Source: Candidatus Poribacteria bacterium (GTDB lineage: Bacteria; Poribacteria; WGA-4E; WGA-3G). From it: a DNA stretch of 64,000 bases. The stretch covers positions 4,576,001-4,640,000 of the forward strand of contig OZ242029.1 in the NCBI GenBank assembly GCA_965205015.1, written 5' to 3'. Each line of letters starts with the position of its first letter. Position 1 is the stretch's first letter. Positions 4,016-46,424 of this stretch are shown piece by piece. The position numbers were made by a program, and so were the translations under genes. The notes under the pieces were generated by a model. It had not been told where the DNA came from. It did no database searches and saw nothing but the letters and a program-made list of their open reading frames with translations.

Positions 4016-4996
4016 ATGTTAGCAAAATTTTGGATTATAATTACAGCAGTAATCGTTCTTACTTCACCGGTGGTCGCTGATGAGATAAAGATCGCTAGCT
4101 GGAATATACAACAACTCGGTCAAACTAAGGCGGGGATTAATACGAGTAAGAATGAGAAGACCAAAGCCCGGACTGAATATCATAAGGCTAATGACACCAT
4201 AGGCAAGATAGCAGAAATCATAAAAAAGGGCAAATTTGATGTCGTTGCTATCCAAGAGGTTCAAGATATAGGTTTTAAAACCTTACCAAAACTATTAGAC
4301 ACTTTAGGCGCAAATTGGAAGTATATTGAAAGTGAAAGAACCGGTAGAGAGAAAAAAGAACAATATGCTATATTTTTTAACCCTGTAAAGTTAACACCAA
4401 AAGGCACTATACATCTCCATGATGATATGGAAGATGGTTGGGATCATTTCTCAAGAGACCCTGGATACGCGAGTTTTTCATATCGGGATTTTGAGTTTAT
4501 CATCATTACGTGCCATTTAGATCCTGACACACACGCTGCTTATGAAACAGAGCGTTTGGATGATGTTTATGAAGCCGTGAAACGCAAAACAGGCAATCCA
4601 AATATCTTGGTATTAGGGGATTTCAATTTAGAAGAGGGTCCAGAGGATATAGCATTCCAAGATGAGGGTCTTTTAGATGAGAAAAATTACCCTGAAATGA
4701 AGGCGGTTTTAGAGGCAACTTATGATACAACGGTCGCTGGCGAAAATGATGCAACGACTCTTGATAATATCCTGTTTAATTCTGGCCAATTTGAATTAAA
4801 AGAAAAAGGGGTGTATCGTTTTGATGACGAATTAGGTGAAGGTTATGATAAAGACATCTCCGATCACTACCCTGTGTGGGCTATCTTTGAGATACCGGAT
4901 GTCGAGGCGGCTGATGCCTCTCCATTTGCACCACAAGCCCCTTCTATGACAAAAATTGAACCCTCAACATGGAGCTCTCTCAGAAATCTAAATTAG
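4016..4996 (+). CDS. Secreted endonuclease/exonuclease/phosphatase (DNase I-like) family protein
   Basis: Signal peptide from ATG 4016; motifs SWNI, IQEV, CHL, GDFN, LDNI, SDHYPV; AT-rich. Confidence 0.9.
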   Translation: MLAKFWIIITAVIVLTSPVVADEIKIASWNIQQLGQTKAGINTSKNEKTKARTEYHKANDTIGKIAEIIKKGKFDVVAIQEVQDIGFKTLPKLLDTLGANWKYIESERTGREKKEQYAIFFNPVKLTPKGTIHLHDDMEDGWDHFSRDPGYASFSYRDFEFIIITCHLDPDTHAAYETERLDDVYEAVKRKTGNPNILVLGDFNLEEGPEDIAFQDEGLLDEKNYPEMKAVLEATYDTTVAGENDATTLDNILFNSGQFELKEKGVYRFDDELGEGYDKDISDHYPVWAIFEIPDVEAADASPFAPQAPSMTKIEPSTWSSLRNLN

Positions 4997-5026
4997 AGTT
5001 TTTTCAACTACAATCTATAGGTATCA

Positions 5027-5380
5027 ATGAACATGGATAACTTGCCTAAACATAACCAAAAACCAACAGAAAAAGGCAGAATCAAACTTATAGATATTGT
5101 CGCGCTCACACAGGATGTCCCAGAGCATAATCTTAAATGTGGAGAAGTCGGCACAATCGTTGAAATCCTTGAAAACGGCGAAGCAGTTGAGGTTGAATTC
5201 AGCAATGACAATGGGCAGATGCATAAGGGGCTGAGTTTCCCCGCATCTCAACTTAAGGTACTTTACCAAGAACCGATATCAGAATCAAAGCAGAAACAAA
5301 AATCCACTTCCAAACACACCAAATCCACCAAATCCGATAAACTCGCGATTCAGGCAATAACCACCAATTCCCACAATTGA
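5027..5380 (+). CDS. DUF4926 domain protein with low-complexity C-terminal tail
   Basis: IDIVALTQDVPEHNL..GEVGTIVEIL..GEAVEVEFS..NG pattern. Confidence 0.8.
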   Translation: MNMDNLPKHNQKPTEKGRIKLIDIVALTQDVPEHNLKCGEVGTIVEILENGEAVEVEFSNDNGQMHKGLSFPASQLKVLYQEPISESKQKQKSTSKHTKSTKSDKLAIQAITTNSHN

Positions 5381-5418
5381 CCGCCATAATCCTGCAAATC
5401 TTGATTCAGAAGAGGGAG

Positions 5419-5442
5419 TCGGGATTCGGAGATCCCTCCTAC
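5419..5442. repeat. REP-like hairpin ending in CCTAC (GTAGG on minus strand)
   Basis: TCGGGATTCGGAGATCCCTCCTAC; similar copies at 55143-55166, 29265-29288 and 21372-21394. Confidence 0.75.
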
Positions 5443-5469
5443 CGAAGATAAGCCCCAACCATATTTTCC

Positions 5470-5498
5470 TTGCTTTATTGGCAACGTACTGATATAAT
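5470..5498 (+). promoter_or_regulatory. sigma70-type promoter of the Crp/Fnr gene
   Basis: TTGCTT-N17-TATAAT with extended -10 TG. Confidence 0.7.
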
Positions 5499-5581
5499 TA
5501 AGGAAAAAGAACACTGCAATTTCCAGTGAACGGTCTCAAAAGAGTCCACGCTTAACCAGAAACCGATAGGGTGATCGTAGT

Positions 5582-6463
5582 ATGGTGACACAAAAAAAAA
5601 TCCCAGAGAGATTCTGGTGCGTTAAAGGGATAGACATCTTCCGAGACCTGACGGAAACAGATGCTGACGCGCTCGCACGGATAACGACTTTCGTCGAGTT
5701 AAAACACGGAGACACACTCTCCGCCGAAGGTGTTTATCTGTTGAAGGAAGGTCGCATCAAAATTCATCAAACACCCCCTGAAGGTGAAGCGATCACCTTA
5801 GATGTGTTGGAAGCTGGCGAATTCTTTGGGGCAGTGCGCTGGGAGGATAACGTTGCAGGTCCCAACGTCACCGCTGAGATATTTACAGAGGTTTCCGTTG
5901 TCGGAGTTGTTAGTGTCCAGAACTTCCAATATTTCTTGAAACGAAAACCGCACTTGGCGATGCCAGCGCAGAGAACTTTAGGAAGTCTTCTAAAGAGGCA
6001 TCTACGGTGGCGTGCGGCGGAATCAGGGAATTACAATCTCGTAACTTCATGTCAGAAACCGCGCAGGGGATTGACGAACCCTTTTCTAAACATTGCGTTC
6101 CGAAGTCCGGCGTCGCGACTCGCGCTTCTGTTACAAAACTGTGCCGACGCACCGGAACACAGGCGCACAGCGATGGGACGTAGTGCACAGTGTGTCTTAC
6201 GTAAACTCTCAACGAAGCGGTTGGCACAACTCATCGGCAGTTCCGTTGAGCAGATGGAAGCACTTCTCAATCAGTTTAAACAGCATCAGATCATCAAGAA
6301 ACGGTTTCGGCGGATTCAGATACTTGACCCGTGGCAACTAAAAAAGATTGCCAACGCAAGAATGAAAACGCTACCCCCTGAAACGATCAAAAGTCAAGAG
6401 AACACCCAAAATTATGAGCAAGAAGAACCCTTATTTGCAGCTCGACCAGCAGATGGTCGGTGA
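5582..6463 (+). CDS. Crp/Fnr family transcriptional regulator
   Basis: cNMP-binding barrel (VYLLKEGRIKI...GEFFG) and HTH (LAQLIGSSVEQ...L..F). Confidence 0.85.
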   Translation: MVTQKKIPERFWCVKGIDIFRDLTETDADALARITTFVELKHGDTLSAEGVYLLKEGRIKIHQTPPEGEAITLDVLEAGEFFGAVRWEDNVAGPNVTAEIFTEVSVVGVVSVQNFQYFLKRKPHLAMPAQRTLGSLLKRHLRWRAAESGNYNLVTSCQKPRRGLTNPFLNIAFRSPASRLALLLQNCADAPEHRRTAMGRSAQCVLRKLSTKRLAQLIGSSVEQMEALLNQFKQHQIIKKRFRRIQILDPWQLKKIANARMKTLPPETIKSQENTQNYEQEEPLFAARPADGR

Positions 6464-7793
6464 CATCTACACTTCACAAGAAGTGATGGAAAATCTGACA
6501 GTCTTATGCGATGAATACGGTGCTCGGTTCGCCGGAACACCTGAGGAATATGACGCCGCAAACTTCATCGCTGCGTGTTTCAAACGTTACGGACTCCAGA
6601 ATGTCAAACTTGAGACATATCCCTACGCTGGCTGGACGCGTGGCACGGCGACACTTGAGGTTCTCGAACCGATTCGTCGAACCCTGCACTGCATCTCGTT
6701 ACCCTACTGCCCCGCTGCCGACATCACCACGGAACTGGTCTCTGTTGGATGTGGAAGCCCTGACGAATACACTGCACTCGGTGGTACGGCTACCGATAAA
6801 CTGGTCATGGCAAAAAGTGCCTCGCCGCCGGATCTCGGAAGATGGGTACATCGCAAGGAGAAGTTTGAACGCGCCGTGCTTGCGGGTGCGAGTGGATTTA
6901 TTTTTGTCAGTGAACATCCTGGTGTAGGTCCCGAAACGGGAAGCCTTCAAAATGACAGACGCGCCCCAATCCCCGGTATATCCGTTTGCAAAGAGGATGG
7001 CGAATTCTTGGCACGGTTGATAGCACGAGGAAACGGGAAAGTAACATTAAAACTCCAGACAACGGACATCAATGAACCGAGGACCTCGTGGAACGTTGTC
7101 GCAGATTTGCCCGGTAATGAAAACGCCGATGAGATGGTGGTTGTGGGGTGTCATTACGATGGACACGATATTTCACAGGGCGCGCACGACCCCGCTTCAG
7201 GCATGGTATCCGTCATAGAAGCCGCTCGTGTGCTATCTGCGTATGCCGCTGATTCGCTCAAGTGCACCATCCGTTTCATCGCTTTCGGAACGGAAGAAAT
7301 CGGACTGACGGGTGCATTTCGTTATGTTGACGCGCACGCGGCGGAGTTGGATAACATTCGGTTTATGCTCAATATGGATGCGGCAGGCGGTGCAAGTCGT
7401 AAGGGCATTGTCCTCCACCACTGGGACGCGTTGGAATCCTTCTTTAGCACTGCATGTGAGCAGATGCACGCTGAAATGCCGGTTGGACAAAAGGTGCATT
7501 CCTACTCCGACCATTTTCCATTTTTTCTTAAGGGTGTACCTTCAAGCCACATGGGGGATCCAGAGGCACCTCCTGGTGGTAGAGGTTTCGGTCATACGGC
7601 TTATGATACACTGGACAAGGTGGAATTGGAGAATCTACGGGCTGCCAGTGCGGTCGGCGCACGAGTCGCCCTCCGCTGTGCGAATGCCGATGATTTTCCT
7701 GCCAAACGCCGGACATCCGAAGCGGTTCAAGAAATCGTTGACACTGACCCAGGGTTAGAGGGGTATCGAATCTCACTTAAACTGACTCGCTAA
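6414..7793 (+). CDS. M28 family peptidase with PA domain
   Basis: GCHYD, GAHDPASG, EEIGL, NMD, SDH, HTAYDTLDK. Confidence 0.92.
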   Translation: MSKKNPYLQLDQQMVGDIYTSQEVMENLTVLCDEYGARFAGTPEEYDAANFIAACFKRYGLQNVKLETYPYAGWTRGTATLEVLEPIRRTLHCISLPYCPAADITTELVSVGCGSPDEYTALGGTATDKLVMAKSASPPDLGRWVHRKEKFERAVLAGASGFIFVSEHPGVGPETGSLQNDRRAPIPGISVCKEDGEFLARLIARGNGKVTLKLQTTDINEPRTSWNVVADLPGNENADEMVVVGCHYDGHDISQGAHDPASGMVSVIEAARVLSAYAADSLKCTIRFIAFGTEEIGLTGAFRYVDAHAAELDNIRFMLNMDAAGGASRKGIVLHHWDALESFFSTACEQMHAEMPVGQKVHSYSDHFPFFLKGVPSSHMGDPEAPPGGRGFGHTAYDTLDKVELENLRAASAVGARVALRCANADDFPAKRRTSEAVQEIVDTDPGLEGYRISLKLTR

Positions 7794-7869
7794 GTTAAAG
7801 AATAGCATTGTCCCGCAAGCCCATACGCGGCTTGCGCCGCAGTCGGCTTTCAGCAGCCGGTTCAGATTC

Positions 7870-9297: not shown

Positions 9298-9411
9298 GTG
9301 TTTTTAAATCAGGAGCAAACGTCTGGTAATTATCCACGATAATGCACAAATCTAATGGAAACAGATGATCCGTCCAACGGATGGATCGTAGCAAGAGGCA
9401 ATAGGAAAAAA

Positions 9412-10128: not shown

Positions 10129-10134
10129 TTTATA

Positions 10135-10230
10135 GTTTTCGGTGCGGGTTGCTACGCAACCCTTTCAGTTCTCGGTAACAAAAGGATTTTGTTAGACCAT
10201 ACCCCTCTTTAACCGATAACCGATAACCAT
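10135..10230 (+). repeat. Heptamer-flanked MITE/REP-like element
   Basis: GTTTTCGG..CAGTTCTCGG, AAAAGGATTTTGTTAG core, (AACCGAT)x2 end; same architecture as 2044-2135. Confidence 0.65.
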
Positions 10231-10238
10231 TTAGAAAT

Positions 10239-15027: not shown

Positions 15028-15042
15028 AAAAAAAATGGAGGC

Positions 15043-17571
15043 TTGATGATGAAAGGCTTTCTAAATACATTCATATTCCCCTCTTCACCCCGTAGGGGTG
15101 AAATCTCTATAGGGAGAATAGCATGCTTCATTCTTGTTTCGATCTTTTTCATACTTCTGCACCCAGCGTTCGGGCAAGAATCCAATCTGGTTGAGGAGGC
15201 CCAAAAACAGGCACGGAGTTGGTGGTCGAACTCTCAGGTTTACGTTGGCGTCATCCTTCTCGTCTTCATAATTAGTAGCGTTGGCTATATAATCAGGCTT
15301 TTCAAAAAGGACAAACTTCTTAAGAAACTCCTGAATAAGTACGTTGTTTTTCAGATGAAAGACGGCAGGCGTTACCGAGGCACCATGCGTCTGGAAATCA
15401 CAGGCATGGAGATTATCTCTGAGGAATCCCGGCAACGCGGACACGCCCCAAGTTATATTTTCACCAACGAAGAACGTGATGAGGGAATTGTCGCCTACAT
15501 CCGTTACCATGATTCAATGAATGAGCGTGAACTCAGAGAACGCGCGTGGGAACTTGAGCGCGTCTACCATCCGCCTGTCATCTACAAAATCGGGCGGAAA
15601 ATTCGGAATATGTTCATCGCTCTCAACGAGGCATTGAAAGAAGCCATTAGCATGGCTTGGAGCAGTTTCACAAGAAGCGCGAACAAGCGTTTAGAACGGT
15701 ACGCGGAAGTATATGAAGAGGGTGGCGGTAATCTGGAGCAAAGGCTCGGCAGATTGGAAGAAGAATCTACAGGCTACTTGGAGCAGGAGAGTTATGAACG
15801 TTTGATCGAACGGTTGATTGGAACACGGGTCAAAGTCCGAGTGCGTTTCGGTGAACATACCGCTGAGTACACGGCTATCCTCAAAGACTACAATAACAAA
15901 CATATTGCGCTCATGGATGTGAAGGACAAGGACAACAACGGCTACGCGGACGAGTGGGAATACGAACATGAATTTGAGAAGGATCTCGCAAAACTCAACC
16001 GCCGAGATGACCGCGGATTGCGGTGTCGAGCAGAGGGCAACGAGATCATCTTTGAAAACAATACACCCTATACCATCCAGCTCGGCCGCATTCGATTGAC
16101 AGAAGACTCACCGAAATGGGAAAAGGATTATGAATACAAATACCATATCGGTGCCTTCAGTGTTCAAAGACTTGAGGTCACTCCTGTCGTTAAGCATAAT
16201 GTCGAGCCGTTCGAGCGCGTCGCCATTCGAGACACGCGTGCCATAAACAATTACAAAAAAATTTGGTTCAAGTTTCGCTCTTTCCGAGATGCGGATATCG
16301 TATTCCCGCGTCGCTACTGCACAATTGTTGAAAGCGCGGAAAAATACCAGCCTGAACTTTTCAGTCTTGCCGGCTTGACAGATACTATTTTAGACATGCG
16401 TGATACAGAGAACATCGCTATTACCAACAAAGATGGCAATACTATCCACGGTATCAACGTTGTTCATGGGTATGTGACAAATATCAATGAGGAGCGTATT
16501 GATTTAAAGGCAATCGACGCGAGTTATAGCCGCAGATGGGATGTTGAAAGCGCGTTTCGCCGTTTTGATAATAAACTTCGCCATGGATTTCCTATCTACA
16601 AGCGGCTTCTCCCCATAAATCGCGTCCGGATTACAGCGCATGCTTCGCTCATTGAGCAGATACACAGTACCCCCATTCGGCACGCCGCGTTAGCACCGCT
16701 TATTTATCCACAACCCCGTAACCTCAACACGACGGAACAGCGCACACGTAGACGAAAACGGATGTGGAATCGAATTGTGAGGCGGATAAATGCTGCAATT
16801 TGGAAATCAGGAAACGGGATTTCCAGAACGCCTGATGTAAAACGTTCGGAAGTACCAATCGCGATGCCGTTTAAACTCATGGCACTGACTGGAAATACAT
16901 CCTCCGTCGAATTTCCGGTCCTCGAACGTTTTGAATACATTCAGGATCACCACATGATTTACAACGCGGTTCAAAATTTGCGAACCGATCGGTTAGCAAA
17001 GACTGATATTTTATGGATTGGGAACGGCGAGATTTACAAATCCGGCTATCGATTAAACATAGATACTGAACATCGAATCAAAAATTTCGTCAGTCAAGGC
17101 GGGGTCGTTATAGTTTCTGGACAAGATATCAAAGCCAGCGCCAAACAGCGCCGCGGTACAGGGTGGATTCCGGAACCTCTCACCGGCGTTGAATGTGAAG
17201 AGACTTATGAACTCTCTCCCACATCACAAGGGAAACGCTCCCGTATCTTCCAATATCCGAATCCACTGAATGGGCATCATGCCGATCCAGAGACGCAGGA
17301 TCAGCCCTTTATTCGACTGGATGATATGTGGTTGGATCCGCTGGGAAAATGGACATCTCTCGCCAAAATTAACACAGCCGCTACGGGACTTCCGAAGAAT
17401 GGATCTGAAAATGCCTCCGCGCTTTTACTCCTGCCGTTTCAGCAAGGGTTATACATCGTCACCAGTTTAAGGAATGAGACGGAAGCAGATGTCCAAATCA
17501 ACGATAAAATTATGGAAAACCTGCTCCATTTTTCCGTTAAATGGCTTGATCGGCAACGTCCGACTGTTTAG
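15043..17571 (+). CDS. Hypothetical membrane-anchored multidomain protein (two Sm/LSm-like segments; C-terminal GATase1-like/DUF4350-like domain)
   Basis: 842-aa ORF after GGAGG; signal/TM helices; C-terminal 'IKNFVSQGGVVIVSGQ'. Confidence 0.75.
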   Translation: MMMKGFLNTFIFPSSPRRGEISIGRIACFILVSIFFILLHPAFGQESNLVEEAQKQARSWWSNSQVYVGVILLVFIISSVGYIIRLFKKDKLLKKLLNKYVVFQMKDGRRYRGTMRLEITGMEIISEESRQRGHAPSYIFTNEERDEGIVAYIRYHDSMNERELRERAWELERVYHPPVIYKIGRKIRNMFIALNEALKEAISMAWSSFTRSANKRLERYAEVYEEGGGNLEQRLGRLEEESTGYLEQESYERLIERLIGTRVKVRVRFGEHTAEYTAILKDYNNKHIALMDVKDKDNNGYADEWEYEHEFEKDLAKLNRRDDRGLRCRAEGNEIIFENNTPYTIQLGRIRLTEDSPKWEKDYEYKYHIGAFSVQRLEVTPVVKHNVEPFERVAIRDTRAINNYKKIWFKFRSFRDADIVFPRRYCTIVESAEKYQPELFSLAGLTDTILDMRDTENIAITNKDGNTIHGINVVHGYVTNINEERIDLKAIDASYSRRWDVESAFRRFDNKLRHGFPIYKRLLPINRVRITAHASLIEQIHSTPIRHAALAPLIYPQPRNLNTTEQRTRRRKRMWNRIVRRINAAIWKSGNGISRTPDVKRSEVPIAMPFKLMALTGNTSSVEFPVLERFEYIQDHHMIYNAVQNLRTDRLAKTDILWIGNGEIYKSGYRLNIDTEHRIKNFVSQGGVVIVSGQDIKASAKQRRGTGWIPEPLTGVECEETYELSPTSQGKRSRIFQYPNPLNGHHADPETQDQPFIRLDDMWLDPLGKWTSLAKINTAATGLPKNGSENASALLLLPFQQGLYIVTSLRNETEADVQINDKIMENLLHFSVKWLDRQRPTV

Positions 17572-27174: not shown

Positions 27175-27849
27175 ATGGCGATAGTAGTAGAAGGAACAGG
27201 CTTAACGAAACGTTTTGGCAGCGGCGATGCCACCGTTGTTGCAGTTGACGCGGTCGATATCCGAATTGAAGCGGGTGAACTGGTGATGCTAATGGGCGAC
27301 AGTGGTTGTGGAAAAACAACGCTCATCAGTCTCCTCGGCTGTATTTTAACGCCGGATGATGGGGAACTCCACATTGATGGCGAACCGATTAACCCTGAAG
27401 TGCAAGATTTGAGCGTCATTCGTCGTGAAAAGATCGGATTCGTCTTCCAACTGTTTCACCTACTGCCCTATCTCACTGCCCTGGAAAATGTCATGGTTGC
27501 TATGGATCTCGCTCGAACAAAGACAACCGAAGCGGAAAGCCGCGCCATAGAACTCCTCACACAGGTCGGTTTGAACGAACGACTTCATCATCGTCCCGCC
27601 CAACTCTCCGGTGGTGAAAAACAACGTGTCTCTTTTGCCCGCGCCCTCGCCAACCGTCCGAAAATCATCTTCGCCGATGAACCTACCGCCAATCTCGACA
27701 GTCGCCAAGGCGACAACCTCATGAACCTTATCCAAGAACTGCGTCAAGAACACCAAACGACTATCGCGATTGTAACACACCACGAAGGATTAAAAGAGAA
27801 TGCTGATCGTGTTATCCAGATGAAAGATGGAAGGATCCTCACCACATGA
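27175..27849 (+). CDS. ABC transporter ATP-binding protein (LolD/MacB-like)
   Basis: [33 protein letters not shown]. Confidence 0.95.
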
Positions 27850-29255
27850 ACAGAAATAACGGGATCGTATATTGTGGAAGATGTATCTTTGCCTCGATCA
27901 TCGGAACCCTAATTTTTTTCTTCATTCTACCGACGCTTACCCCTGCCGAAGAAGATCAAACCTTAACCAAACTGGAACACCCCGACTTCCTAACAAGTGG
28001 ACTGTACGGTGGCGGTCTCACCTTCATCAACGGCGATGCTTACGTCCGACTTCAACTTCAACCGGATATACCGCTCGGAAAAGTCGGCATTGGGTTAGAT
28101 TTAATTCTGCTTTATAACCCTTACGCAGAGGGAGATGATCCCCCAATCCTCGCTGAGGACGGCGAAGCATGGGACAGTCCCAGTACCTGGTTAAGACTCG
28201 TCCGTTATGTTCGCTACGGTCGACCTTACGATCCTTTTTATGCCCGATTCGGGGAGTTAGATTACCTAACCATTGGGCACGGTTCAATTATGTCGGGTTA
28301 TTCTAATTACGATCGGCGCGGGTTACGTCTGAATCTCAGAAATTCCGAAAACCGTTACGGCATTGAAACAATGATGAACGACATCGGTAATCCTACAATT
28401 TTCGGAGGCCGCGGATTTTATCGCCCGTTTCAACGAGAAGAAAATAATAACTTACTGACGCGGTTTGAACTCGGTGCAACCTATCTCACAGACATCAATC
28501 CGAATCTACAAGAAGAGGGGGAAGAACCCTTGAATGCCGTCGGGCTTGATGTGGGATTCCCAATTTTTGAGACAAGCGCGTTTCGACTCGATCTCTATGA
28601 CGACATCGCTTTCCTCAATACATTATCCGAAGACAACACAGAAATAGAAATCACGCTTACAGAAGAAAATCAAGTAACAACGAATCTCGCCTGGGGGAAC
28701 GCTGTTGGCGTTGGATTCTCTTTCACCCAAACGCTCTTCAAAATAGAGTATCGCACGTTTGGAGAGGGCTATATCCCTTCCGTGTTCGATTACACATACG
28801 AATCTGCGAAATCGTTATCCCCGGCGCCAGATATGCCCCAATTCTTGGGCTTAGCGGCAAACACTGAACCGAGACGCGGCTTTTTCTCACAACTTATCTG
28901 GCATCCGATGCCACAAATTCATTTCATGGGGACATTCGAGGATTATACGAACACGGAACCGAAACTCTATATGGCGGTGACAGAGTCGGGATTAGTCCCA
29001 CGTTTTTCGCTGCGGGCATTCTACACAAAACGCGATATCGGTGAGGGTGGAGAGACGAATTTCTTCGGAGATCTGTTCGATTTAGATGAAAAATCGGCAT
29101 TCAGTGTAGAGGTGCGTTATGAAGTCTTTCCACCGGTTGTGACGATTGTTACCCGTGAATACACGTTTCGTCGCGTTGAAACAGCAGAAGGGGTTTCCGA
29201 ATTTGAGCCGATTCATAAAACGTCGTTTATGGTAGGGGTGAGTACAGATTTTTAG
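27846..29255 (+). CDS. Putative outer-membrane beta-barrel protein
   Basis: Signal peptide, amphipathic beta strands, C-terminal ...VGVSTDF. Confidence 0.7.
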   Translation: MNRNNGIVYCGRCIFASIIGTLIFFFILPTLTPAEEDQTLTKLEHPDFLTSGLYGGGLTFINGDAYVRLQLQPDIPLGKVGIGLDLILLYNPYAEGDDPPILAEDGEAWDSPSTWLRLVRYVRYGRPYDPFYARFGELDYLTIGHGSIMSGYSNYDRRGLRLNLRNSENRYGIETMMNDIGNPTIFGGRGFYRPFQREENNNLLTRFELGATYLTDINPNLQEEGEEPLNAVGLDVGFPIFETSAFRLDLYDDIAFLNTLSEDNTEIEITLTEENQVTTNLAWGNAVGVGFSFTQTLFKIEYRTFGEGYIPSVFDYTYESAKSLSPAPDMPQFLGLAANTEPRRGFFSQLIWHPMPQIHFMGTFEDYTNTEPKLYMAVTESGLVPRFSLRAFYTKRDIGEGGETNFFGDLFDLDEKSAFSVEVRYEVFPPVVTIVTREYTFRRVETAEGVSEFEPIHKTSFMVGVSTDF

Positions 29256-29318: not shown

Positions 29319-30773
29319 TCAATCTGTTCCACGTTCTATTTCCGCTGCAACAAGTTCACCCAAGAGATTGCCTCTTGCGTTAACCGAGATAACTTTACCC
29401 TCTCGATCCAATAAAAACGGTGCCGGGATACCGCGGACCCCATACTTTTCAACGAGGGGACCGCTCCATCCTCCACCGTCAAAGATTTGTCGCCACGGCA
29501 ACCGGTTCTCCTTGATAAACTCACGCAACACCGCCTCATCCTTATCGAGACTTATCCCGATAACATCAAAGCCTTTGGCGTGGTATTTCTCGTATACCCC
29601 TTTGACGTTCGACATTTCTCCAATACACGGTCCACACCACACTGCCCAGAAATCAAGCAGAACGACTTTGCCACGGTAGTCTGCAAGTGAAATTGGTTCG
29701 CCCTCCAAATCAACTGTTGATGAGAAATCGGATAGGACTTGCCCCACCCACGCCAAAGTGGGATCTGCCGTCACCCGATATGCGTGGGCAAGTTCGGAGT
29801 TGCCTAACTTTTCGTGGAGGTTAGCCAAGCCGCTCCAAGCAGCTCGGTCATCTGGGTTCTGCTTTAATCGACCTTCAAATACCAACTGTAACTTCTGAAA
29901 AACTGCTTGAGCTTCTTTGGTATTCCCTAAGGCTTCGTGAATTTCAGACAACATTCTTGTGTGAATCCAATCGTCAGGTGTCAGTTTTAACTGTTCTTCA
30001 AAAACGTGTTGAATCTTGCCGAGCACTGTAGTCCATCGTTCTCTTAGCGGATGGTCGCCTTCAAGCCGCTGATAAAAATCGTTAGGCCTTGCTGTTACAT
30101 ACTCGTAATCATAACAAAATCGGTATATCCATTGTGACAAAGCAGGTTTTCCACTTTCCTGCAAGTCACCTTGGAAAGGAGATGTCACAGTAAGTGTTTG
30201 ATGTTTTTGATGCCGCTCAAAGAGTCCTTCGAGTGCGGTAACGGCTTCTTCGTGGAGATAATCAAAACCAGCCTTTTCAAAAGCCAAATAGCAGACTTCA
30301 ACATCGTTTGGCAACAGTACCATTGCTTTCTGGACAACATCCCAGAAACCATCATGTGGTATGTCGTACGGGGTTCCTGCGAGTACTATAGCCGAGAATT
30401 TTGCTGCAGCGCCATTGTCGGGATTACTTTCCAAGACCCTTTGGGCATGCTTATATAAGTCTTTACGCAACGCCTCAGGAAAGCTCCAAACGAACTCGTA
30501 CCAAACGAGATTGGACGGGAGCGACGTCTTTCCATTAACAACGCCCGCATCAATTTTTGCCTTGAGGTAAACAGCCAGTGCCGCTTGAAACTCGGGCACA
30601 CTTGCCCAATAAGTCTCCAACTTGCCATTGTCGTTGTGGTGCAGATTCGAGAATACCTCCCATATATCTACAGCATCCTCATCCTGTTCAGAAAATGCCT
30701 GATTCGGAAAGATCGGCACTCCGAAATAAAACCCAATAACCAAAAGTGTTAAACATACACATTCCTTCTGCAT
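29319..30773 (-). CDS. TPR-containing TlpA family thiol-disulfide oxidoreductase
   Basis: Signal peptide, helical repeats, GKVVLLDFWAVWCGPC, cis-Pro GIP. Confidence 0.9.
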   Translation of the reverse strand: MQKECVCLTLLVIGFYFGVPIFPNQAFSEQDEDAVDIWEVFSNLHHNDNGKLETYWASVPEFQAALAVYLKAKIDAGVVNGKTSLPSNLVWYEFVWSFPEALRKDLYKHAQRVLESNPDNGAAAKFSAIVLAGTPYDIPHDGFWDVVQKAMVLLPNDVEVCYLAFEKAGFDYLHEEAVTALEGLFERHQKHQTLTVTSPFQGDLQESGKPALSQWIYRFCYDYEYVTARPNDFYQRLEGDHPLRERWTTVLGKIQHVFEEQLKLTPDDWIHTRMLSEIHEALGNTKEAQAVFQKLQLVFEGRLKQNPDDRAAWSGLANLHEKLGNSELAHAYRVTADPTLAWVGQVLSDFSSTVDLEGEPISLADYRGKVVLLDFWAVWCGPCIGEMSNVKGVYEKYHAKGFDVIGISLDKDEAVLREFIKENRLPWRQIFDGGGWSGPLVEKYGVRGIPAPFLLDREGKVISVNARGNLLGELVAAEIERGTD

Positions 30774-30836
30774 CTGTTTGTCCCCGCGTGCTCTTCGCCC
30801 AAAACCGATAGCAGGCGTCAGTGAGTAGATAAAAAT

Positions 30837-32255
30837 TTAGTCCACTTCACCTGCCAAGTGCTCAGCAACAAGCTTATCCAAAGTGCTACTTCGGACCTTA
30901 ACCGAGATAACTTTGCCCTCTCGATCCAGCAGAAACATTCTCGGTACGCTACGGATACCATACCGCTGTGCTAAGGGACCTTTGAGCCGCTTACCGTCAA
31001 AAATCTGCCGCCACGGCAACGGATTCTCCTCAATAAATTCGCGCAACGCCGTCTCATCTGTGTCAAGGCTTATTCCAATAACGTCAAAGTCTTTGTTATG
31101 ATACTTCTCATATACGGCTTTGATAGTCGGTAGCCCCGCGATACATGGACGACACCACGTCGCCCAAAAATCAAGCAAAATAACCTTGCCGCGATAGTCT
31201 GTGAGTGAAATCGGTTTACCCGCTAAGTCAACAGCAGGTAAGAGATCAGGCAACATCTCCCCCTTAAATGCCAAAGTAGGATCTGCTCTTACCCGATATT
31301 CGCGGGCTAACTCAGGATTTCCAAACTTTTCATGGATACCGGCTAATACTCCCAAAGCAGAATCGTCGTTCGGGTTTCTCTCCAATCGTTTTTCAAAAAC
31401 TGGTTGGACCTTCTTGAAAACCGCCTCAGCTGCTTCGTCATTCCCCAACGTTTCGTGAACATAGGCAACAATATAAAAAACATAGGAATCAGGCTTCTGC
31501 TTCCACTCCCTCTCAAACACAGCGGGAATCTCACTTAACACTGCTCTCCATCGCTCAATCAGTGGATCGTTACTGTCAATTTGTTTATAAACTAAGCTGG
31601 GTGTCATCAAATTTTCGTCACTACTATACAGTCTCATTACCCACTTATATGGAATCGGATAGATGGTTCCACGAAGTCGCTCAAAGAGCCTTTCAAGCGA
31701 AACAAGTGCCTTTTCGTTCATCGGATTACCAATCCGTGTGCATGTTGCATACGCGAAGAAACAAATCTCAATATCATTATGCACCAACACCATCGCTTTT
31801 TCTACAAGGGGATACTTTTCAATCGGCTTTTGAGCATCTATGTCGCCAAATGCCTCAATTGCCAGAAACTTTGCAGCTGCACCGTTGTTCGGGTCTGCCT
31901 TCAGAACATTTTCAGCGTGTGATTTGAGTTCTCGCCGCATCTCCTTCGGAAAGCGGTGGACGTAACTTGGTAAGCGGGGTGGAAGTGATGTCAGCCCGTC
32001 AGAAACGCCAGGATCAATTTTTGCCTTGAAGTAAGTAATTAATTTTTCCTGAGTCTTCGGTTCGATTTCCCAATGTGGGTCCGTAAGCCCGCGGTGGTCA
32101 AGCGTCCTGAGAAAGGTATCCCAAACATCTACAGTGTCCTGTTTCAAGGATTTACCAAAGTCCTTGTCCACATCAGAAAATCCTGGGTTCAGACCAATTG
32201 CCGTTAAACAGAACACGATAAGTAAAAAAACAAAACGTACACCTACTTGCTTCAC
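30837..32255 (-). CDS. TPR-containing TlpA family thiol-disulfide oxidoreductase (tandem paralogue)
   Basis: GKVILLDFWATWCRPC; shares P.NGAAAKF and ADPTLA segments with 29319..30773. Confidence 0.9.
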   Translation of the reverse strand: MKQVGVRFVFLLIVFCLTAIGLNPGFSDVDKDFGKSLKQDTVDVWDTFLRTLDHRGLTDPHWEIEPKTQEKLITYFKAKIDPGVSDGLTSLPPRLPSYVHRFPKEMRRELKSHAENVLKADPNNGAAAKFLAIEAFGDIDAQKPIEKYPLVEKAMVLVHNDIEICFFAYATCTRIGNPMNEKALVSLERLFERLRGTIYPIPYKWVMRLYSSDENLMTPSLVYKQIDSNDPLIERWRAVLSEIPAVFEREWKQKPDSYVFYIVAYVHETLGNDEAAEAVFKKVQPVFEKRLERNPNDDSALGVLAGIHEKFGNPELAREYRVRADPTLAFKGEMLPDLLPAVDLAGKPISLTDYRGKVILLDFWATWCRPCIAGLPTIKAVYEKYHNKDFDVIGISLDTDETALREFIEENPLPWRQIFDGKRLKGPLAQRYGIRSVPRMFLLDREGKVISVKVRSSTLDKLVAEHLAGEVD

Positions 32256-34560: not shown

Positions 34561-34923
34561 TCACTCACCCCATATTATTGCTTCAATTTTGTCGGAGACT
34601 GTATCCACCACTTCATCAGGTAAATAACATACATATTTAACCTCTCTTGCATGCCAATCAAGGCTCTTAACCTGATCTACTCGGATAACACCATCTACAG
34701 GAAGTCCATCCGGAATAGGAACTTCAAAAGCAATCCCTCTGACGGTACGGGTAATTGGGCAAACGACAGCAATATTCTGTCTGAGGTTAAAATTCCATGA
34801 GGATACAACAACGGCAGGACGACGCTTCCTGATTTCGCTGCCTTTTTGTGGATCTAAGTTAATCTCAACTACGTCACCTCGCACTGGAATGTAGTCGCTA
34901 TTATATAAGGTTGAACTTATCAT
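34561..34923 (-). CDS. mazF: MazF/PemK family toxin (mRNA interferase)
   Basis: RGD.V.I.LDPQKGSEIRKRRPAVVVS..FN, CPIT, DQVKSLDW.AR. Confidence 0.92.
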   Translation of the reverse strand: MISSTLYNSDYIPVRGDVVEINLDPQKGSEIRKRRPAVVVSSWNFNLRQNIAVVCPITRTVRGIAFEVPIPDGLPVDGVIRVDQVKSLDWHAREVKYVCYLPDEVVDTVSDKIEAIIWGE

Positions 34924-35294
34924 ATTTCATTGCCAACAGCCGGACCGGTATCCCACTCATTAGACTCGTCGGATCCATTATTTTCCGTTGTGTCAATCAG
35001 GAGCTCCTTTAATTTTAAGCGTGGATGTGTCGTAGAGCGTCCGACCTTTTCAACCCGATGTGGCTTAGGTTTTCCAGATTTAACAGTTTCATACTGCTCA
35101 GCACAACCTGATTCTTGAGCCAGTAAGTCGTTCAGTTTCAAGCGTGGATGTATCGTAGAGCGTCCGACCTTTTCAACCCGATGTGGCTTGCGCAGGGCAT
35201 CAGCCTTAGCAGGTACCCGATTTTCGTATTTAGTTTTGGGCGCGATAAGGAAATTAAGATACGCGACAAGGACCAAACATTCTTGAGATGACAT
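34920..35294 (-). CDS. Atypical MazE-like antitoxin
   Basis: Overlaps the toxin start by 4 nt; C-terminus L.ELL......E.DTGPAVGNE resembles the MazE toxin-binding tail. Confidence 0.7.
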   Translation of the reverse strand: MSSQECLVLVAYLNFLIAPKTKYENRVPAKADALRKPHRVEKVGRSTIHPRLKLNDLLAQESGCAEQYETVKSGKPKPHRVEKVGRSTTHPRLKLKELLIDTTENNGSDESNEWDTGPAVGNEI

Positions 35295-37613: not shown

Positions 37614-37616
37614 AAT

Positions 37617-38644: not shown

Positions 38645-39508
38645 TTAAAAAGTATACCGTAAACCGTTAAATATTTCCACATCATGTTTTTGGATACCGG
38701 TCGGGGGTTCGCTATCGTATCGGAAATTTACTCGGAGCGGAAAGGATAATTTTGTCGTCAGCCGGAATGTAATGCTGCCTTCAAAAAGGACGCGATAGTC
38801 TTGAAAACGTCGGACATAGACCTGATAGTATCCTGTCGCACTCGTCGTGATGCGTTCATCGAGTTGCCCCGTCCAATTGATATAATTCGTTGACCGAACG
38901 ACACGGGTCGTGATCGCGCCACGCGCCTTGTCATTAATGCGTTCGTGTTCCCACATCGCACCGATGCCGAGATAGAGATTAAATCTGGAATCACGCGGAT
39001 GCGAGGCGAACCGAACACCACCGCCTCCCAAATTCCGGTCGCTCAATAAAATAGATTCGTTGAATTGCTTCTGAACAAAGGATTCCAAAAGGAGGTGTTG
39101 CGTCAAATTTCGGATAATTCGAGCGTGTGCCATGCCTTTGTTGATAAAAAACACATTATCCTTTCTACCCTGCTGGAGACTCCCAAAAATAAAGGCGTGA
39201 TACACGTCTGTAAGATAATCCGATCGAAATCGAGTTCGAGTTGTCAGGAGATCTGTGTTACCGGAACGATAGGCTAAATCCAGAGCGATACTGTTATACA
39301 CACCGGATTCCAACTGCATTTGCTTCATGGTTTCACCCGTAAAGATGTTCACCTGTGCTATGAGTGGAGGACAGCAAGCGAGAAATAATATGAAACAGAC
39401 ACCGACAAGTCGATTGCTCTTATTCTGACTGGAATGATTCGAAGGAAAATACAATGGACAAAATCGCTCTGTGGTAGTAAAATCAGTAAAGAAAATGGTA
39501 AAATTCAC
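38645..39508 (-). CDS. DUF481 outer-membrane beta-barrel protein
   Basis: SGNTD, R.LGGGG.R, RYDSEPP, C-terminal LRYTF; start uncertain. Confidence 0.8.
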   Translation of the reverse strand: MNFTIFFTDFTTTERFCPLYFPSNHSSQNKSNRLVGVCFILFLACCPPLIAQVNIFTGETMKQMQLESGVYNSIALDLAYRSGNTDLLTTRTRFRSDYLTDVYHAFIFGSLQQGRKDNVFFINKGMAHARIIRNLTQHLLLESFVQKQFNESILLSDRNLGGGGVRFASHPRDSRFNLYLGIGAMWEHERINDKARGAITTRVVRSTNYINWTGQLDERITTSATGYYQVYVRRFQDYRVLFEGSITFRLTTKLSFPLRVNFRYDSEPPTGIQKHDVEIFNGLRYTF

Positions 39509-39541
39509 CTTCTAAAAATATATCAAAATAGGAAGACACAC

Positions 39542-40501: not shown

Positions 40502-40511
40502 TTCCAAGGGC

Positions 40512-40536
40512 GGGCACCCACAAGGGATGCCCCTAC
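40512..40536. repeat. GTAG-REP-like hairpin between convergent genes
   Basis: GGGCACCCACAAGGGATGCCCCTAC. Confidence 0.7.
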
Positions 40537-40568
40537 AAGGCTGATTCTATCGGCTGGCAAAGTCTATG

Positions 40569-41831: not shown

Positions 41832-41841
41832 CGCAAACCGC

Positions 41842-42492
41842 TTAAAATACGTTCACGCCACCCAGTGGATGGCTCGGAATATAGCGGAGGTCGTTGTATG
41901 GATCGCGCTGGAGCATCATTGGCACCTCTAACTTCGGAAGTTTCAGTTCAGCGAATTTAACGCGTTGCTGGGGGGTCAGTTCTGCCGCGATTTCCTCAAT
42001 GATGTCCTTAATCTCGTCGAGATAAATCTCGCGTTGCTTTAGAAACTTCCGTGCCTCGTCTCTGAATTGGTTTAGTTCCCGCCGAGAACGCGTATCCATG
42101 AACCCACTTTCGTAGCGATCATAGTATCGTTGCGTCATACCCGCTCGAAATACCTGATAATCCACCTCTAACTGTTTCTTCTCAAAATCGTAATCATCAA
42201 CAATATCACGGATAAGTTTCAGTTTCGGGTGAATTGTCTGCTGCTGTGCCGTTGTGAGTTGCAATGCCGCTGAACTCTTGGATATATCGATCAGTTTGAG
42301 TCCGCCACACGCTTGCAAAAAACCGCAGAGCAGTAAAATGAAGAAGGGGATAGAAGCATGGAAGACTGGAAGCATGGAAGACTGGAAGGTTCCCCCCTCT
42401 TCCAACCTTCCAACCTTCCAGTGAATGCCTTCCAATCTCAGGAGCAAACGAAGAAATCCTGTGTCAGTCCTACAAGTCATACAAGTCACCAT
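41842..42492 (-). CDS. Hypothetical helical lipoprotein (Spy/CpxP-like), start uncertain
   Basis: Lipobox FLQA-C; LT..QQ and ELTPQQR motifs. Confidence 0.7.
   Translation of the reverse strand: MVTCMTCRTDTGFLRLLLRLEGIHWKVGRLEEGGTFQSSMLPVFHASIPFFILLLCGFLQACGGLKLIDISKSSAALQLTTAQQQTIHPKLKLIRDIVDDYDFEKKQLEVDYQVFRAGMTQRYYDRYESGFMDTRSRRELNQFRDEARKFLKQREIYLDEIKDIIEEIAAELTPQQRVKFAELKLPKLEVPMMLQRDPYNDLRYIPSHPLGGVNVF
42353..42420. repeat. Inverted octamer tandem repeat element
   Basis: (GAAGNNTG)x4 then (TTCCAACC)x2-3 in inverted orientation. Confidence 0.75.
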
Positions 42493-43975
42493 ATTTCGCT
42501 CGGAGGTAGGCTATATACGGTTCAATGGAGAGAGGGCCTCCAGTTGCGCGTTGAATAATTTCCGGTGCCGTATACTTCGATCCGTGCTGGTAAAGATTTT
42601 CTTTCAACCAATCGTGGAGCGTAGTAAACTCGCCATTTTCAATTTCAGATGGAATTTCAGTGTGTGCCTCGCATGCGGCTGAGAAGAATTGTGCCCCCAA
42701 AATATTGCCCAACGTATAGCCCTGAAATGAACCCCCAATCAACCCATAATACCAATGGACATCTTGCAAAACGCCATCTTTATCATCAGGAGGGACGATG
42801 CCGAAATCGGCTTCAAACCGTTCACGCCATGCACCCGGCAAATCTCGAATCTCCAAATTGCCTTCCAAGAGTGCCAGTTCGAAATCGAAACGCAACATGA
42901 CGTGTAGATTGTATGTAACTTCGTCCGCATTTGTCCGAATGAGAGAGCGTTCCACCTTATTAATGGCGCGGTGAAACGTCCGTAAGGGGACGGAACCCAG
43001 CTGCTCAGGAAAAACGCTTTGGAGTTGCGGATAGAAATGCTGCCAAAACCCTCGGCTCCGTCCGACAATATTTTCCCAAAGCCTCGACTGACTCTCATGC
43101 ACGCCCGATGAAGTACCACTCGCGAGCGGTGTGCCTTCCAAGTCCATGCGAATCCCCTGTTCATAGAGAGCATGCCCGGTTTCGTGTAGCGTGCTGAAGA
43201 GCGCATCGCCAAGGAAATTCTCTTTTGTACGGGTTGTGATCCGCACGTCGCCAAGCGAGAATTTTGTCATAAATGGGTGGTGTGTCTTATCTTGGCGACC
43301 TCGATTCAAGTCGTAACCGAACTTTTGAGCAACCTCTAAACCAAACGCGAGCTGCTTGTCCTCAGGAAAGTGTTGGTGCAAACAGGAATCGTCGGCGAGT
43401 GCTTGCGATGTAATGGCAGCAGCAATCGGCACAAGTTCCTGCCGCAATTCCGCAAAGACGCGACTCACATCGGTAGCCTTCATTCCGTAATCGCTGAATT
43501 CAATGAGTGGATCGGCGATGTGCTCATACCCCGGAAAGAATTCTGCCGCCTGTCGGCTATAATCCAGTGTTTTTTCGAGATAGGGACGTACCCGCTCAAA
43601 GTCGTTCGCGGGACGTGCTTCCGTCCACACTTGATAAGACTCCGATGTGTGGTTGGTCACCTCTGCCATGAATTCAGCAGGGATTTTGGTAGCCCATTCG
43701 TAGTCTCTACGCGTAACACGGAGCAGACTTGCTGCATCGGAATCGTAAGCGAGACTTTTTTCATACGGTTCGAGGGTGTCGAGTAACCTTCCTACTTCGG
43801 GATCGGTAAACTTTTCGTGTGCCAATCGGCGAAGTGTCGCACTTTGCCGTCCCCGAGCCGGGGCACCCCCGGGTGGCATATACGTGGTTTGATCCCAGTA
43901 GAGGAGTCCGGCGGCGGACGATATATCATCCACCTCAAGCAGCCGGGCTTTGAGTTGTTGGAATTTGGACTGCAT
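42470..43975 (-). CDS. Carboxypeptidase M32 (Taq) family
   Basis: L.WDQ.T.MP.GG, HPF, DVRITTR, HETGHALYEQ, HESQSR.WEN, LQDVHW. Confidence 0.97.
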   Translation of the reverse strand: MQSKFQQLKARLLEVDDISSAAGLLYWDQTTYMPPGGAPARGRQSATLRRLAHEKFTDPEVGRLLDTLEPYEKSLAYDSDAASLLRVTRRDYEWATKIPAEFMAEVTNHTSESYQVWTEARPANDFERVRPYLEKTLDYSRQAAEFFPGYEHIADPLIEFSDYGMKATDVSRVFAELRQELVPIAAAITSQALADDSCLHQHFPEDKQLAFGLEVAQKFGYDLNRGRQDKTHHPFMTKFSLGDVRITTRTKENFLGDALFSTLHETGHALYEQGIRMDLEGTPLASGTSSGVHESQSRLWENIVGRSRGFWQHFYPQLQSVFPEQLGSVPLRTFHRAINKVERSLIRTNADEVTYNLHVMLRFDFELALLEGNLEIRDLPGAWRERFEADFGIVPPDDKDGVLQDVHWYYGLIGGSFQGYTLGNILGAQFFSAACEAHTEIPSEIENGEFTTLHDWLKENLYQHGSKYTAPEIIQRATGGPLSIEPYIAYLRAKYGDLYDL

Positions 43976-44257
43976 ACTATGCTCCTATTGTAACCCAAGT
44001 TGCTACGGACAAGATTTCGGGTGTGCGAACCCCGTTTTTCAGTGAAAAGCGTTCATGCGCCGCGAAGGTCTTGTCGCGTAAACTTTTCGTTTGCGCATCC
44101 ACGGACACAAACTGGAAAGATTGTGCTACGAGTGGCACAATCTCACAGTTTATGCACTCAGGCACAGGAGACCCATGGTTCCCTATGCTACAATTTCAAT
44201 CAGAAATGGTATTATTACTGGATTCAAACCGATTTAGAAAATGTCTGATGTTTACGC

Positions 44258-44953
44258 TTATCGGGCGTTTTTGATGCGTCCCCATGTGGTTGTGAGCTTG
44301 GCTTTAGGGTCTACGGGAAAACTGTCATCGCCGAAGAACTCAATTTCGCCAATTTGAAAGTATGCACCAGCCGGGTTCGATGCGGTGTCAAAAGTAACAT
44401 GCCGAAAAAACCGATACCCGGTTTTTTGAACGTCGTAATCTTCCCCTGCCTCGAAAAGGACGACTTGCAGTCGCTGATCCCAAAAGCTCTTCCCGTCGTG
44501 AGCATAGATAGTCGTAAACTTCTTGCCGTCGTTCGATCCCTGAACCTCCCACACTGTAGGGTCCCTCGGAGGAACATCGTTCGCTGAAGATACGGTGAAG
44601 TGGGTCAATGCGTACTGCTCCTCAAACTCCGCTGTCACGTGTAGACCTTCTTTCGGAATGCCGCCCCCACGTCCGCAGCACCATTTGTCATTGCTGGGGC
44701 CAAGGCGGTTATCGAAGACGTTAAACGCAAATTCACCGCCCGCGAATCCGGGTTCATCGTTGGCTGAGAAAGTGGCGTTGTAACCTTTATCTGCTTCAGG
44801 TTCACCATCGTCTTCTGGGTCGGTTAGGTCGCCTCCCAGCAGTGAATCCGTTCCTGTTCCCAAGACTTCCTCCGCCTGTGCCATATCGCTCGTGCTGATA
44901 ACAAAACAGGTTATCATCAACACAAAACCTACTAATACCAACATAATTTTCAT
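44258..44953 (-). CDS. Secreted galactose-binding-like (discoidin/F5-8C-like) domain protein with C-terminal TWG tail
   Basis: Signal peptide; FD......KW, SANDVP.RDP..W..QGSNDG, Y.FFR, QIGEIEF; ends PVDPKAKLTTTWGRIK. Confidence 0.8.
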   Translation of the reverse strand: MKIMLVLVGFVLMITCFVISTSDMAQAEEVLGTGTDSLLGGDLTDPEDDGEPEADKGYNATFSANDEPGFAGGEFAFNVFDNRLGPSNDKWCCGRGGGIPKEGLHVTAEFEEQYALTHFTVSSANDVPPRDPTVWEVQGSNDGKKFTTIYAHDGKSFWDQRLQVVLFEAGEDYDVQKTGYRFFRHVTFDTASNPAGAYFQIGEIEFFGDDSFPVDPKAKLTTTWGRIKNAR

Positions 44954-45136
44954 GCTGTTCAATCTCCCAGAGAAATGAATCTCACTTTTACGTGAGTTTC
45001 GCACTTCTCATGTTAATTTTAAAATATACTGATAGAATAACACATACACACCCCCATTTTCAAGGAAATGAACAGAATCTTTCAAGGCATCGCACCCCAA
45101 ACACCGTTCAGTCAAGACCTAACGTAGAAAATTTAA

Positions 45137-45175
45137 AGCCCTCCTGCCCCTCTGATAAGGGGATACAGGAGGGCT
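45137..45175. terminator. Hairpin downstream of the LTD protein gene (terminator or REP)
   Basis: AGCCCTCCTG...CAGGAGGGCT stem. Confidence 0.55.
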
Positions 45176-45203
45176 CTTCGATCTGTAGCGGATTAGCCAA
45201 CCG

Positions 45204-46424
45204 TTATTTCTCTGACTGCTTGAGGGATCCCCAGAGTCCTATCTGTTTTCGGAGGAGATGTGGGGCTTGTGGCACAAACGGCTTATGGTAGCCGGGTGTG
45301 CCAATATCCCCTGCTGCCCCGTAGTAATAGTCTGTATCGGTATCAGCTTCGGCATAGCGGGTATAACTCTGTCGCTCCCCATTGACATGCTTTGGGGCAA
45401 CCGGTCGGGATCCTCCAAAATCTTCGCCTGCTTTGGAGATAACACCGCCATTCGCGGTTCTCAAAGCCCAACCTCTTTTCAGCACATTGCCAATCTTCAG
45501 ATCGTAGACCTGATCCTCCGTCACACCGTCAAAACGATTTGGATGAACGGTATGCGTCACAAAGATAACGGCTTTTTCCCCAGGCACGGTGAAGTTGTCA
45601 ACTCGCACATGCTTAAACGTTTTATTGTTGAAATTCTGGTGTGCCACATAACTGAAAAAACAATTATGTAGCAGGATAGGGGTGGAATTCGGATTGTAGA
45701 GTTCAATCCACTGCGGTAGGTTACCGCCGCTGGTCCGACTCCAGTCGCGCACCATATACTCTGTGAGGCGAAGGGGTTGCTGTGTGACTTGCGTTTGCTG
45801 TCGGGCTTGTGTTTGTATCGGTTGTGGGGTGACACCTGTCTGTGGTGGACCTGTCGCTTGGACGGGATTTTGCGTGGGGTTCTGCGTGGGGTTTTGGGGT
45901 GTGCCATCGGGTTGAGCGAGGAGTTCCGGTGTTTTCGTGTCGCCTGGTACTCTGTTTATTCCACCTGTTTCATCTATCTGCACATCGGTGCGAGGTTCCT
46001 CATCAATACGGAAGGGGAGGATTTCTTCGACTTCGATAATTGGTGGTTGTGGGGTATTGATGGATTCCGGTGGTGGAGTCTTCGGGGGTGGTGGATCATC
46101 TGGGTCCTCGAAATCTAAATCTGGGGTGTCGTCAACAAAATCACGGAGTATGTCATCAATCGTATTTCCGTCGTCTCGATCAGCCCTATGGAGTGGACCG
46201 TAGTTGGGGTTAACTTTCGTCGAACCATCGGGACACCGCTTATACAAGCGAGCATGCCTATGCTGCCCTGTTCCAACCGCCCCGTCATCGCTATGACCTG
46301 GAAAGAGACCAGAAGGATGGTTGTCATGTATATGATCTACCCATTCTCCGTCCTCGCATGCACTTCCGCTATCCACTGCAAATAGACACAGGCTTATCAG
46401 CAACAGTCCAATCATTGTTTTCAT
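45204..46424 (-). CDS. Secreted lamin-tail-domain (LTD)-like protein with His-rich N-terminus and Pro/Gln linker
   Basis: AAAGGAG RBS, signal peptide, L.EYM.....PQWIELYN, GTPG; W-containing tail. Confidence 0.82.
   Translation of the reverse strand: MKTMIGLLLISLCLFAVDSGSACEDGEWVDHIHDNHPSGLFPGHSDDGAVGTGQHRHARLYKRCPDGSTKVNPNYGPLHRADRDDGNTIDDILRDFVDDTPDLDFEDPDDPPPPKTPPPESINTPQPPIIEVEEILPFRIDEEPRTDVQIDETGGINRVPGDTKTPELLAQPDGTPQNPTQNPTQNPVQATGPPQTGVTPQPIQTQARQQTQVTQQPLRLTEYMVRDWSRTSGGNLPQWIELYNPNSTPILLHNCFFSYVAHQNFNNKTFKHVRVDNFTVPGEKAVIFVTHTVHPNRFDGVTEDQVYDLKIGNVLKRGWALRTANGGVISKAGEDFGGSRPVAPKHVNGERQSYTRYAEADTDTDYYYGAAGDIGTPGYHKPFVPQAPHLLRKQIGLWGSLKQSEK

Follow-up and report, generated by a model that had tools for sequence, protein, structure and literature searches.

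The closest described counterparts of the element studied here are the C-terminal domains (CTDs) of the T9SS (type IX secretion system; type A, TIGR04183, type B, and the short CTDs of Prevotella intermedia), the PEP-CTERM/exosortase and tripartite signals (LPXTG, GlyGly-CTERM, MYXO-CTERM), and dockerin-cohesin and donor-strand systems, the latter including type V pili. We analysed a 64,000-nucleotide stretch of a Candidatus Poribacteria genome (contig OZ242029.1, positions 4,576,001 to 4,640,000; the window), in which three exported proteins end in a similar tail of about 20 residues. We call it the TWG-tail. It is very likely an undescribed C-terminal tag which acts like a sorting or anchoring signal and lies outside every family tested.

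Like the T9SS CTDs, the TWG-tail is C-terminal, goes together with a Sec signal peptide, lacks a transmembrane (TM) helix and sits as a module on unrelated passengers, and it co-exists and swaps with type-A CTDs within the same organisms. Unlike them, it measures about 20 instead of 40-80 residues, is predicted to form a helix and not a beta-sheet, is without GxY or a terminal KxxxK, and has internal copies and lipoprotein carriers. Neither GldM nor GldN was detected in any of 5 genomes searched for each, but the controls stayed equally silent. With PEP-CTERM/exosortase and the tripartite signals the tail shares the short paralogous C-terminal tag, the surface-type passengers and the choice-of-anchor domains, but not the signature-TM-basic layout. 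It also resembles dockerin-cohesin and donor-strand systems as a portable docking module, alternating with dockerin on choice-of-anchor V, whereas it has no Ca-binding loops or repeat, and its acceptor is putative.

The three window proteins and their tails are the following.

4016-4996, plus strand: exported EEP-family (DNase I-like) nuclease, 326 amino acids (PF03372, Exo_endo_phos; signal peptide about 4016-4078, by eye)
4928-4993, plus strand: TWG-tail of the nuclease, divergent, A-P-S junction (profile score and homologs)
44258-44953, minus strand: exported discoidin/F5-8 type C-like protein, 231 amino acids (F5_F8_type_C below cut-off; signal peptide about 44873-44953; AlphaFold 2 model)
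44261-44320, minus strand: TWG-tail of the discoidin protein, canonical Poribacteria form V-D-P-x-x-K-L-x-T-T-W-G-x-I-K (50.2 bits)
45204-46424, minus strand: exported Pro-rich/LTD protein, 406 amino acids (PF00932 below cut-off; signal peptide about 46359-46424)
45207-45275, minus strand: TWG-tail of the LTD protein, divergent, Q-A-P junction (7.6 bits)

The preliminary description had reported that three signal-peptide proteins of different fold end alike, and all three tails were found where it had placed them, on Exo_endo_phos, F5_F8_type_C and LTD folds (the last two below cut-off). Signal peptides were called by eye and with a hydrophobicity heuristic, not with SignalP. The motif W[GSA]x[ILVM][KR] stands at the C-terminus of these 3 of the 54 window genes only and nowhere in 18,399 internal residues, against 0.04 genes expected by chance. 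Since the motif was derived from the same three proteins, the real test of enrichment is in other genomes. When scored against a tail profile without the window rows, the discoidin, LTD and nuclease tails reached 50.2, 7.6 and 2.2 bits, and the next gene 1.3. This leaves one canonical tail, that of the discoidin protein; the LTD tail is divergent and the nuclease tail marginal, with 8.6 bits on the non-Poribacteria profile introduced below.

Both weaker tails are supported by the tails of their relatives. The database holds a 326-amino-acid protein which is 100% identical to the window nuclease, and homologs at 81-88% identity mostly keep the tail in the form A-P-S...K-L-S-T-W-A-S-L-R, while those at 37-68% identity (n=16) stop upstream of it. 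The only relative of the window LTD protein in our data is an LTD protein of a viral contig (36% identity over 212 amino acids), which has a canonical tail. This protein (L301:314-1438) combines an AAPS junction with the tail and adjoins an open reading frame (ORF) of 1643 amino acids with no assigned function. An exact-motif scan of phages gave two matches, this true tail and one outside any tail ORF. The discoidin tail was retained in 116 of 120 homologs. In the AlphaFold 2 model of the discoidin protein a helix is predicted from W224, at a confidence (predicted local distance difference test, pLDDT) below 50 (36-37). Contigs from 4 RNA libraries covered discoidin-gene relatives, and of the LTD gene almost nothing; this is weak evidence, as the runs were found via the discoidin gene and may contain DNA.

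Genome-wide counts were made in the closest genome (G001), a relative 97% identical on the discoidin protein, and gene-level counts in 1.2 Mb of it (60 loci read separately, 953 called genes). A 27-row tail profile gave 284 candidates in this genome, and all 150 of those scored had E below 0.001, that is, at least 150 tail proteins; the profile also matched 120 of 120 Poribacteria genomes. In the 1.2 Mb, all 46 profile matches of at least 5 bits end within 7 residues of the stop. A regex count found the tail on 47 of the 953 genes, where 0.7 were expected. The heuristic called a signal peptide on 43 of these 47 and on 153 of the 906 others (p=5e-27), and the remaining four have signal-peptide-like N-termini by eye. 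The abundance, C-terminal position and signal-peptide carriers predicted from the window alone were thus borne out by the 46 profile matches and the 43 genes.

The Poribacteria consensus reads [LFT]-[APS]-V-[ESD]-P-x-[GD]-K-L-[TA]-T-T-W-[GA]-x-[LI]-K, with K in 95% and R in 4% at the last position (+4). The net charge of the tail is about +2 (median). As had been proposed, there is no TM segment, the highest 15-residue hydropathy within the last 25 residues being 0.87 over 47 tails, and the proposed short helix agrees with AlphaFold 2 models, where a predicted helix begins at the W. Synonymous codons vary freely at the conserved positions, so the constraint acts on the protein, and a DNA- or RNA-level repeat is ruled out. 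An encapsulation peptide of bacterial microcompartments was rejected too, as it does not suit signal-peptide proteins. A cohesin was considered as a putative reader as well. Small binding domains (LamG, CBM9, discoidin) predominate among the passengers, with a median of 254 amino acids for tail proteins versus 906 for 11 type-A CTD proteins. They are also diverse, as 481 tail ORFs fall into 111 clusters, a few regex false positives included.

Some tails depart from the common form. In G001, arrays of LTD/Ig proteins of 730-1000 amino acids (L298, L102, L136) have a tail variant with a G-H-I-G junction, which is also present on a 145-kb second contig. A sigma-factor-like/TolB-like fusion (L110:744-2423) has a truncated tail, with the junction kept and the W-G helix gone, and adjoins an exported paralog (70% identical) whose tail is complete. 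An anti-sigma-like protein without a signal peptide (L044:45-758) has a tail-like C-terminus.

The tail matched no characterised domain, as the preliminary description had supposed. Pfam and NCBIfam searches of 27 and 46 tails gave no match, save a weak one to SBDS for 1 of the 27 (E 0.16); CTD models matched neither tail set, and the Pfam dockerin model none of the 27 tails. A PDB search of the tail gave nothing below E 0.58, and the ESM Atlas no usable match. None of the 47 tail genes is among the 11 CTD genes of G001. The GlyGly-CTERM features (GG motif and TM helix) are absent from the tails. Exosortase (PF09721) was detected in 0 of 5 genomes, where just 1 of 14 controls rang. Three of the 120 discoidin homologs (P0038, P0054, P0102) are named 'PEP-CTERM sorting domain-containing protein' by NCBI; they have the TWG-tail and neither PEP nor a TM segment.

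The TWG-tail is exchanged for other anchors. Among 50 CTD proteins, relatives were found for 15 of the 481 tail ORFs; they include a beta-helix (33% identity over 354 amino acids) and one family at 51-57%. In G001, a lipoprotein HmuY without the tail adjoins a 45%-identical non-lipoprotein HmuY with it, and the tail is found on 1 of 32 lipobox proteins (with a doubtful lipobox) versus 42 of 164 other exported proteins (p=0.004). Of 105 tail proteins, 3 have above-cut-off matches to choice-of-anchor domains (V, J and P), and the choice-of-anchor V domain of G001 has a dockerin in place of the tail. There are also sub-cut-off matches to the PEP-CTERM families ScyF and PepA. The tail is C-terminal, paralogous, carried by unrelated exported passengers and exchangeable with other anchors, as expected of a sorting signal in general. 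The anchor swaps support the part of the preliminary description which proposed a sorting or anchoring role; the machinery it presumed is putative.

We also searched beyond Poribacteria. A variant-motif pattern, which forced the core residues and the stop but not the signal peptide, matched at least 129 metagenome stretches. Among the non-Poribacteria matches, a signal peptide was present on 51 of 62 5'-closed ORFs of at least 100 amino acids. Ca. Eisenbacteria and Ca. Krumholzibacteria have a related subtype, TWGxIKxLYR, so the term 'lineage-specific' in the preliminary description was too narrow. Ten subtype proteins were looked up: one cluster is named Ca. Eisenbacteria and one Ca. Krumholzibacteria, the named Krumholzibacteria member itself being tail-less. 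A subtype profile search found the C-terminal motif in all 120 proteins listed, of which three are organism-named (2 Eisenbacteria, 1 Krumholzibacteria).

The Poribacteria and non-Poribacteria tails are likely homologous, though this is not proven, because hhalign of the two subtypes gives 95.8% probability, because the Poribacteria profile scores at least 5 bits on 111 of 118 non-Poribacteria tails versus 0 of 501 other C-termini (a partly circular comparison), and because 1 of the 111 passenger clusters spans both groups. The subtypes diverge outside the core. Against homology, none of 100 Poribacteria genomes was matched by the non-Poribacteria profile at E<=0.001, and the shared passenger cluster is the only one of the 111. 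On one non-Poribacteria contig, a protein with a cohesin-like domain and a tail adjoins one with a similar-looking domain and a CTD (L195:6004-7445, P0301, P0367).

As for the machinery, Kamke et al. 2014 (PMC3909097) describe, in the parts available, TIGR04183 domains in Poribacteria, did not find the Por structural genes and left the surface route open. We found TIGR04183 matches in 5 of 5 genomes (23-110 per genome), C25 (PorU-like) proteases in 5 of 5, PorV-family matches above cut-off in 10 of 10 (11-17 each), and a SprA-like ORF of 2.1-2.3k amino acids in 10 of 10, with collinear segments and matches below the curated cut-off. Of 41 Poribacteria genomes, 40 have a second SprA-like outer-membrane barrel of 1.1-1.3k amino acids, which belongs to no Pfam family. 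Several of the PorV orthogroups come after a single large CTD-like cargo gene, and three are orphan across the phylum; type B pairs likewise have a cargo gene followed by a PorV paralog, as far as the excerpted PMC12618676 goes. Type-A CTD proteins are also found on tail-bearing non-Poribacteria contigs. In the closest genome the components are arranged as follows.

L127:483-7337, L280-L290 and L294: T9SS-like set of SprA-like protein, many PorV-family barrels and three PorU-like C25 proteases, with several PorV paralogs following a giant cargo gene
L281:15904-16836, L282:10473-11594 and L283:10165-11223: the three orphan PorV-family barrels
L291:6592-10548, minus strand: second SprA-like outer-membrane barrel

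We therefore favour the reading that the TWG-tail is an outer-membrane export or anchoring signal, with a T9SS-like apparatus that apparently lacks a motor as its candidate reader, at a probability of roughly 0.4. The passenger would be exported by Sec and cleaved by signal peptidase. A SprA-like translocon, either the 2.2k-amino-acid barrel or the second one of 1.1-1.3k, would then engage the tail, which likely becomes a short helix upon binding, and hand it over to one of the three orphan PorV-family barrels. Surface display of the passenger would be the final step, possibly preceded by a PorU-like cut at the junction. The tail may serve small single-domain cargo and the type-A CTD large cargo. 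Of 23 Poribacteria CTD proteins, 17 have an AAP/APS junction upstream of the CTD, and two of the window tails are preceded by one as well. Most Poribacteria type-A cargo has a conserved helix-like linker of about 50 residues from AAP to CTD, and one dockerin protein (L116:3830-5056) ends exactly at an AAP junction.

Several points weigh against the T9SS-like reader. Bacteroidota have a T9SS and are not known to bear the TWG-tail. All SprA-like matches are under the curated cut-off, and tail genes have no special adjacency to PorV paralogs. The CTD swap is limited to the 15 of 481 ORFs, and all three choice-of-anchor matches are non-Poribacteria. An internal tail copy is kept in 4 of 4 tandem lipoproteins, so a free C-terminus is apparently not strictly needed, and some non-Poribacteria lipoproteins bear the tail. 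In the consulted parts of PMC11969387 and PMC5445135, the T9SS signals described span 40 residues or more, fold as beta-sheet domains and contain GxY and basic motifs; the tail is no beta-sheet domain of that length and is without these motifs. The same excerpts give PT/GI as the PorU cleavage consensus, which the junction resembles only partly: about half of the tails have V/I after an A or S, but the residue ahead of these is mostly L/F. The preliminary description had further suggested profiling for co-occurring machinery; candidate readers are indeed near-universal in Poribacteria, but so is the tail, and profiling within the phylum therefore does not discriminate. The position, signal-peptide coupling, portability, anchor swaps and gene presence are established here, and the link between tail and machinery is putative.

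The main competitor of the T9SS-like reader is donor-peptide docking. The tail, as a short strand plus helix, would plug non-covalently into an NTF2/SnoaL-like lipoprotein, one lipid-anchored hub would display hundreds of exchangeable passengers, and acceptors bearing their own tail could chain head-to-tail. We consider it unlikely, although it has structural predictions on its side. Outside Poribacteria, an internal TWG..LYR is retained in all four tandem SnoaL-like proteins (a lipobox in three, a damaged N-terminus in the other), once with K changed to L, and the proteins are 38-55% identical to the first of them. The AlphaFold 2 model of one of them (P0287) has an NTF2-like fold and orders both predicted tail copies (pLDDT 77 and 79-81) after a disordered linker, while the discoidin tail is by contrast disordered in its model (36-37). 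However, the P0287 model comes from a 4-sequence alignment with its contacts uninspected, and predictors may fill NTF2 cavities.

Near-identical members of the SnoaL-like family without the tail, and the alternation of tail and dockerin on choice-of-anchor V, also suit docking. The candidate acceptor in Poribacteria is a SnoaL-like lipoprotein, small and acidic, whose gene (L106:18001-18558) adjoins one of Wzz/Wzc type. It was matched 1-4 times per genome in 41 of 41 genomes and has many invariant D/E residues, and the tails are basic (median +2). The gene order DUF5683, lipoprotein, Wzz/Wzc-type gene was seen in most of 30 loci read (L106:17417-18558, L336). On the other side, the SnoaL matches of this lipoprotein are below cut-off, it has no profile similarity to the tandem family beyond the signal peptide (probability 5%), and the tandem family was not found in the 41 genomes. 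Docking also leaves the crossing of the outer membrane unexplained.

Quite improbable is a tail that works without a protein reader, as an amphipathic cationic anchor to membrane, lipopolysaccharide or peptidoglycan, possibly cross-linked via its conserved Lys. The W and basic residues on a short helix, the substitution for a lipid anchor in the HmuY pair and the preference for K over R at +4, which could mark a chemical role, fit this explanation. But the helix is merely about 6-10 residues long, the nuclease family has R at +4, and the fixed V/P/K/L/T/W/G positions imply a shaped partner. Marginally less probable still is that the tail directs export by a different outer-membrane route, be it type II secretion or a channel not yet recognised. 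The positional and swap evidence applies here too, but no candidate was found, and type II secretion is not known to read short linear C-terminal motifs. We regard as highly improbable a self-association helix that assembles small lectin-like proteins into multivalent homo- or hetero-oligomers. It would suit the small binding domains, but it explains neither the near-exclusion from Poribacteria lipoproteins nor the alternation with CTD, dockerin and lipid anchors, and net positive charge disfavours self-packing.

A literature search, with subscription papers and supplements (e.g. Table S9 of PMC3909097) outside its scope, returned no description of the motif. Term searches of bioRxiv 2023.06.07.544157 found no mention of the tail-bearing phyla in the text they covered, and PMC11495043, in its available part, mentions these phyla without any C-terminal or sorting term. 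As about 5% of genes (47/953) in the Poribacteria DNA sampled bear it, the tag would shape a large part of the surface proteome in a dominant sponge symbiont and in other uncultured lineages. The SprA-like, PorV-family and PorU-like genes found here bear on the surface-export question which PMC3909097, in the parts available, left open. A 20-residue signal without a TM helix would undercut the length of the published T9SS signals compared, and the tag profile would permit annotating thousands of hypothetical proteins as probable surface proteins and correcting the wrong 'PEP-CTERM' names. In its widest form the proposal is an unrecognised surface-display system common to several uncultured phyla. 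Either the second SprA-like translocon, working with no Gld motor, or an NTF2-like socket with a lipid anchor would read a 20-residue helical plug, and one hub would display about 200 interchangeable binding proteins (about 5% of Poribacteria genes). We regard this wider picture as doubtful.

Other features of the window are listed below.

240-3291: DUF3857-transglutaminase and MoxR ATPase
15043-17571, plus strand: exported-looking protein of 842 amino acids with a weak transposase-model match only
27846-29255, plus strand: exported protein of 469 amino acids with a C-terminal Phe and no Pfam family
29319-32255: tandem thioredoxin-like exported proteins
34561-35294: PemK/MazF-type toxin with a possible antitoxin
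38645-39508, minus strand: DUF481 barrel
47007-55119: phosphate-transport-like cluster of three ABC ATPases and PhoU

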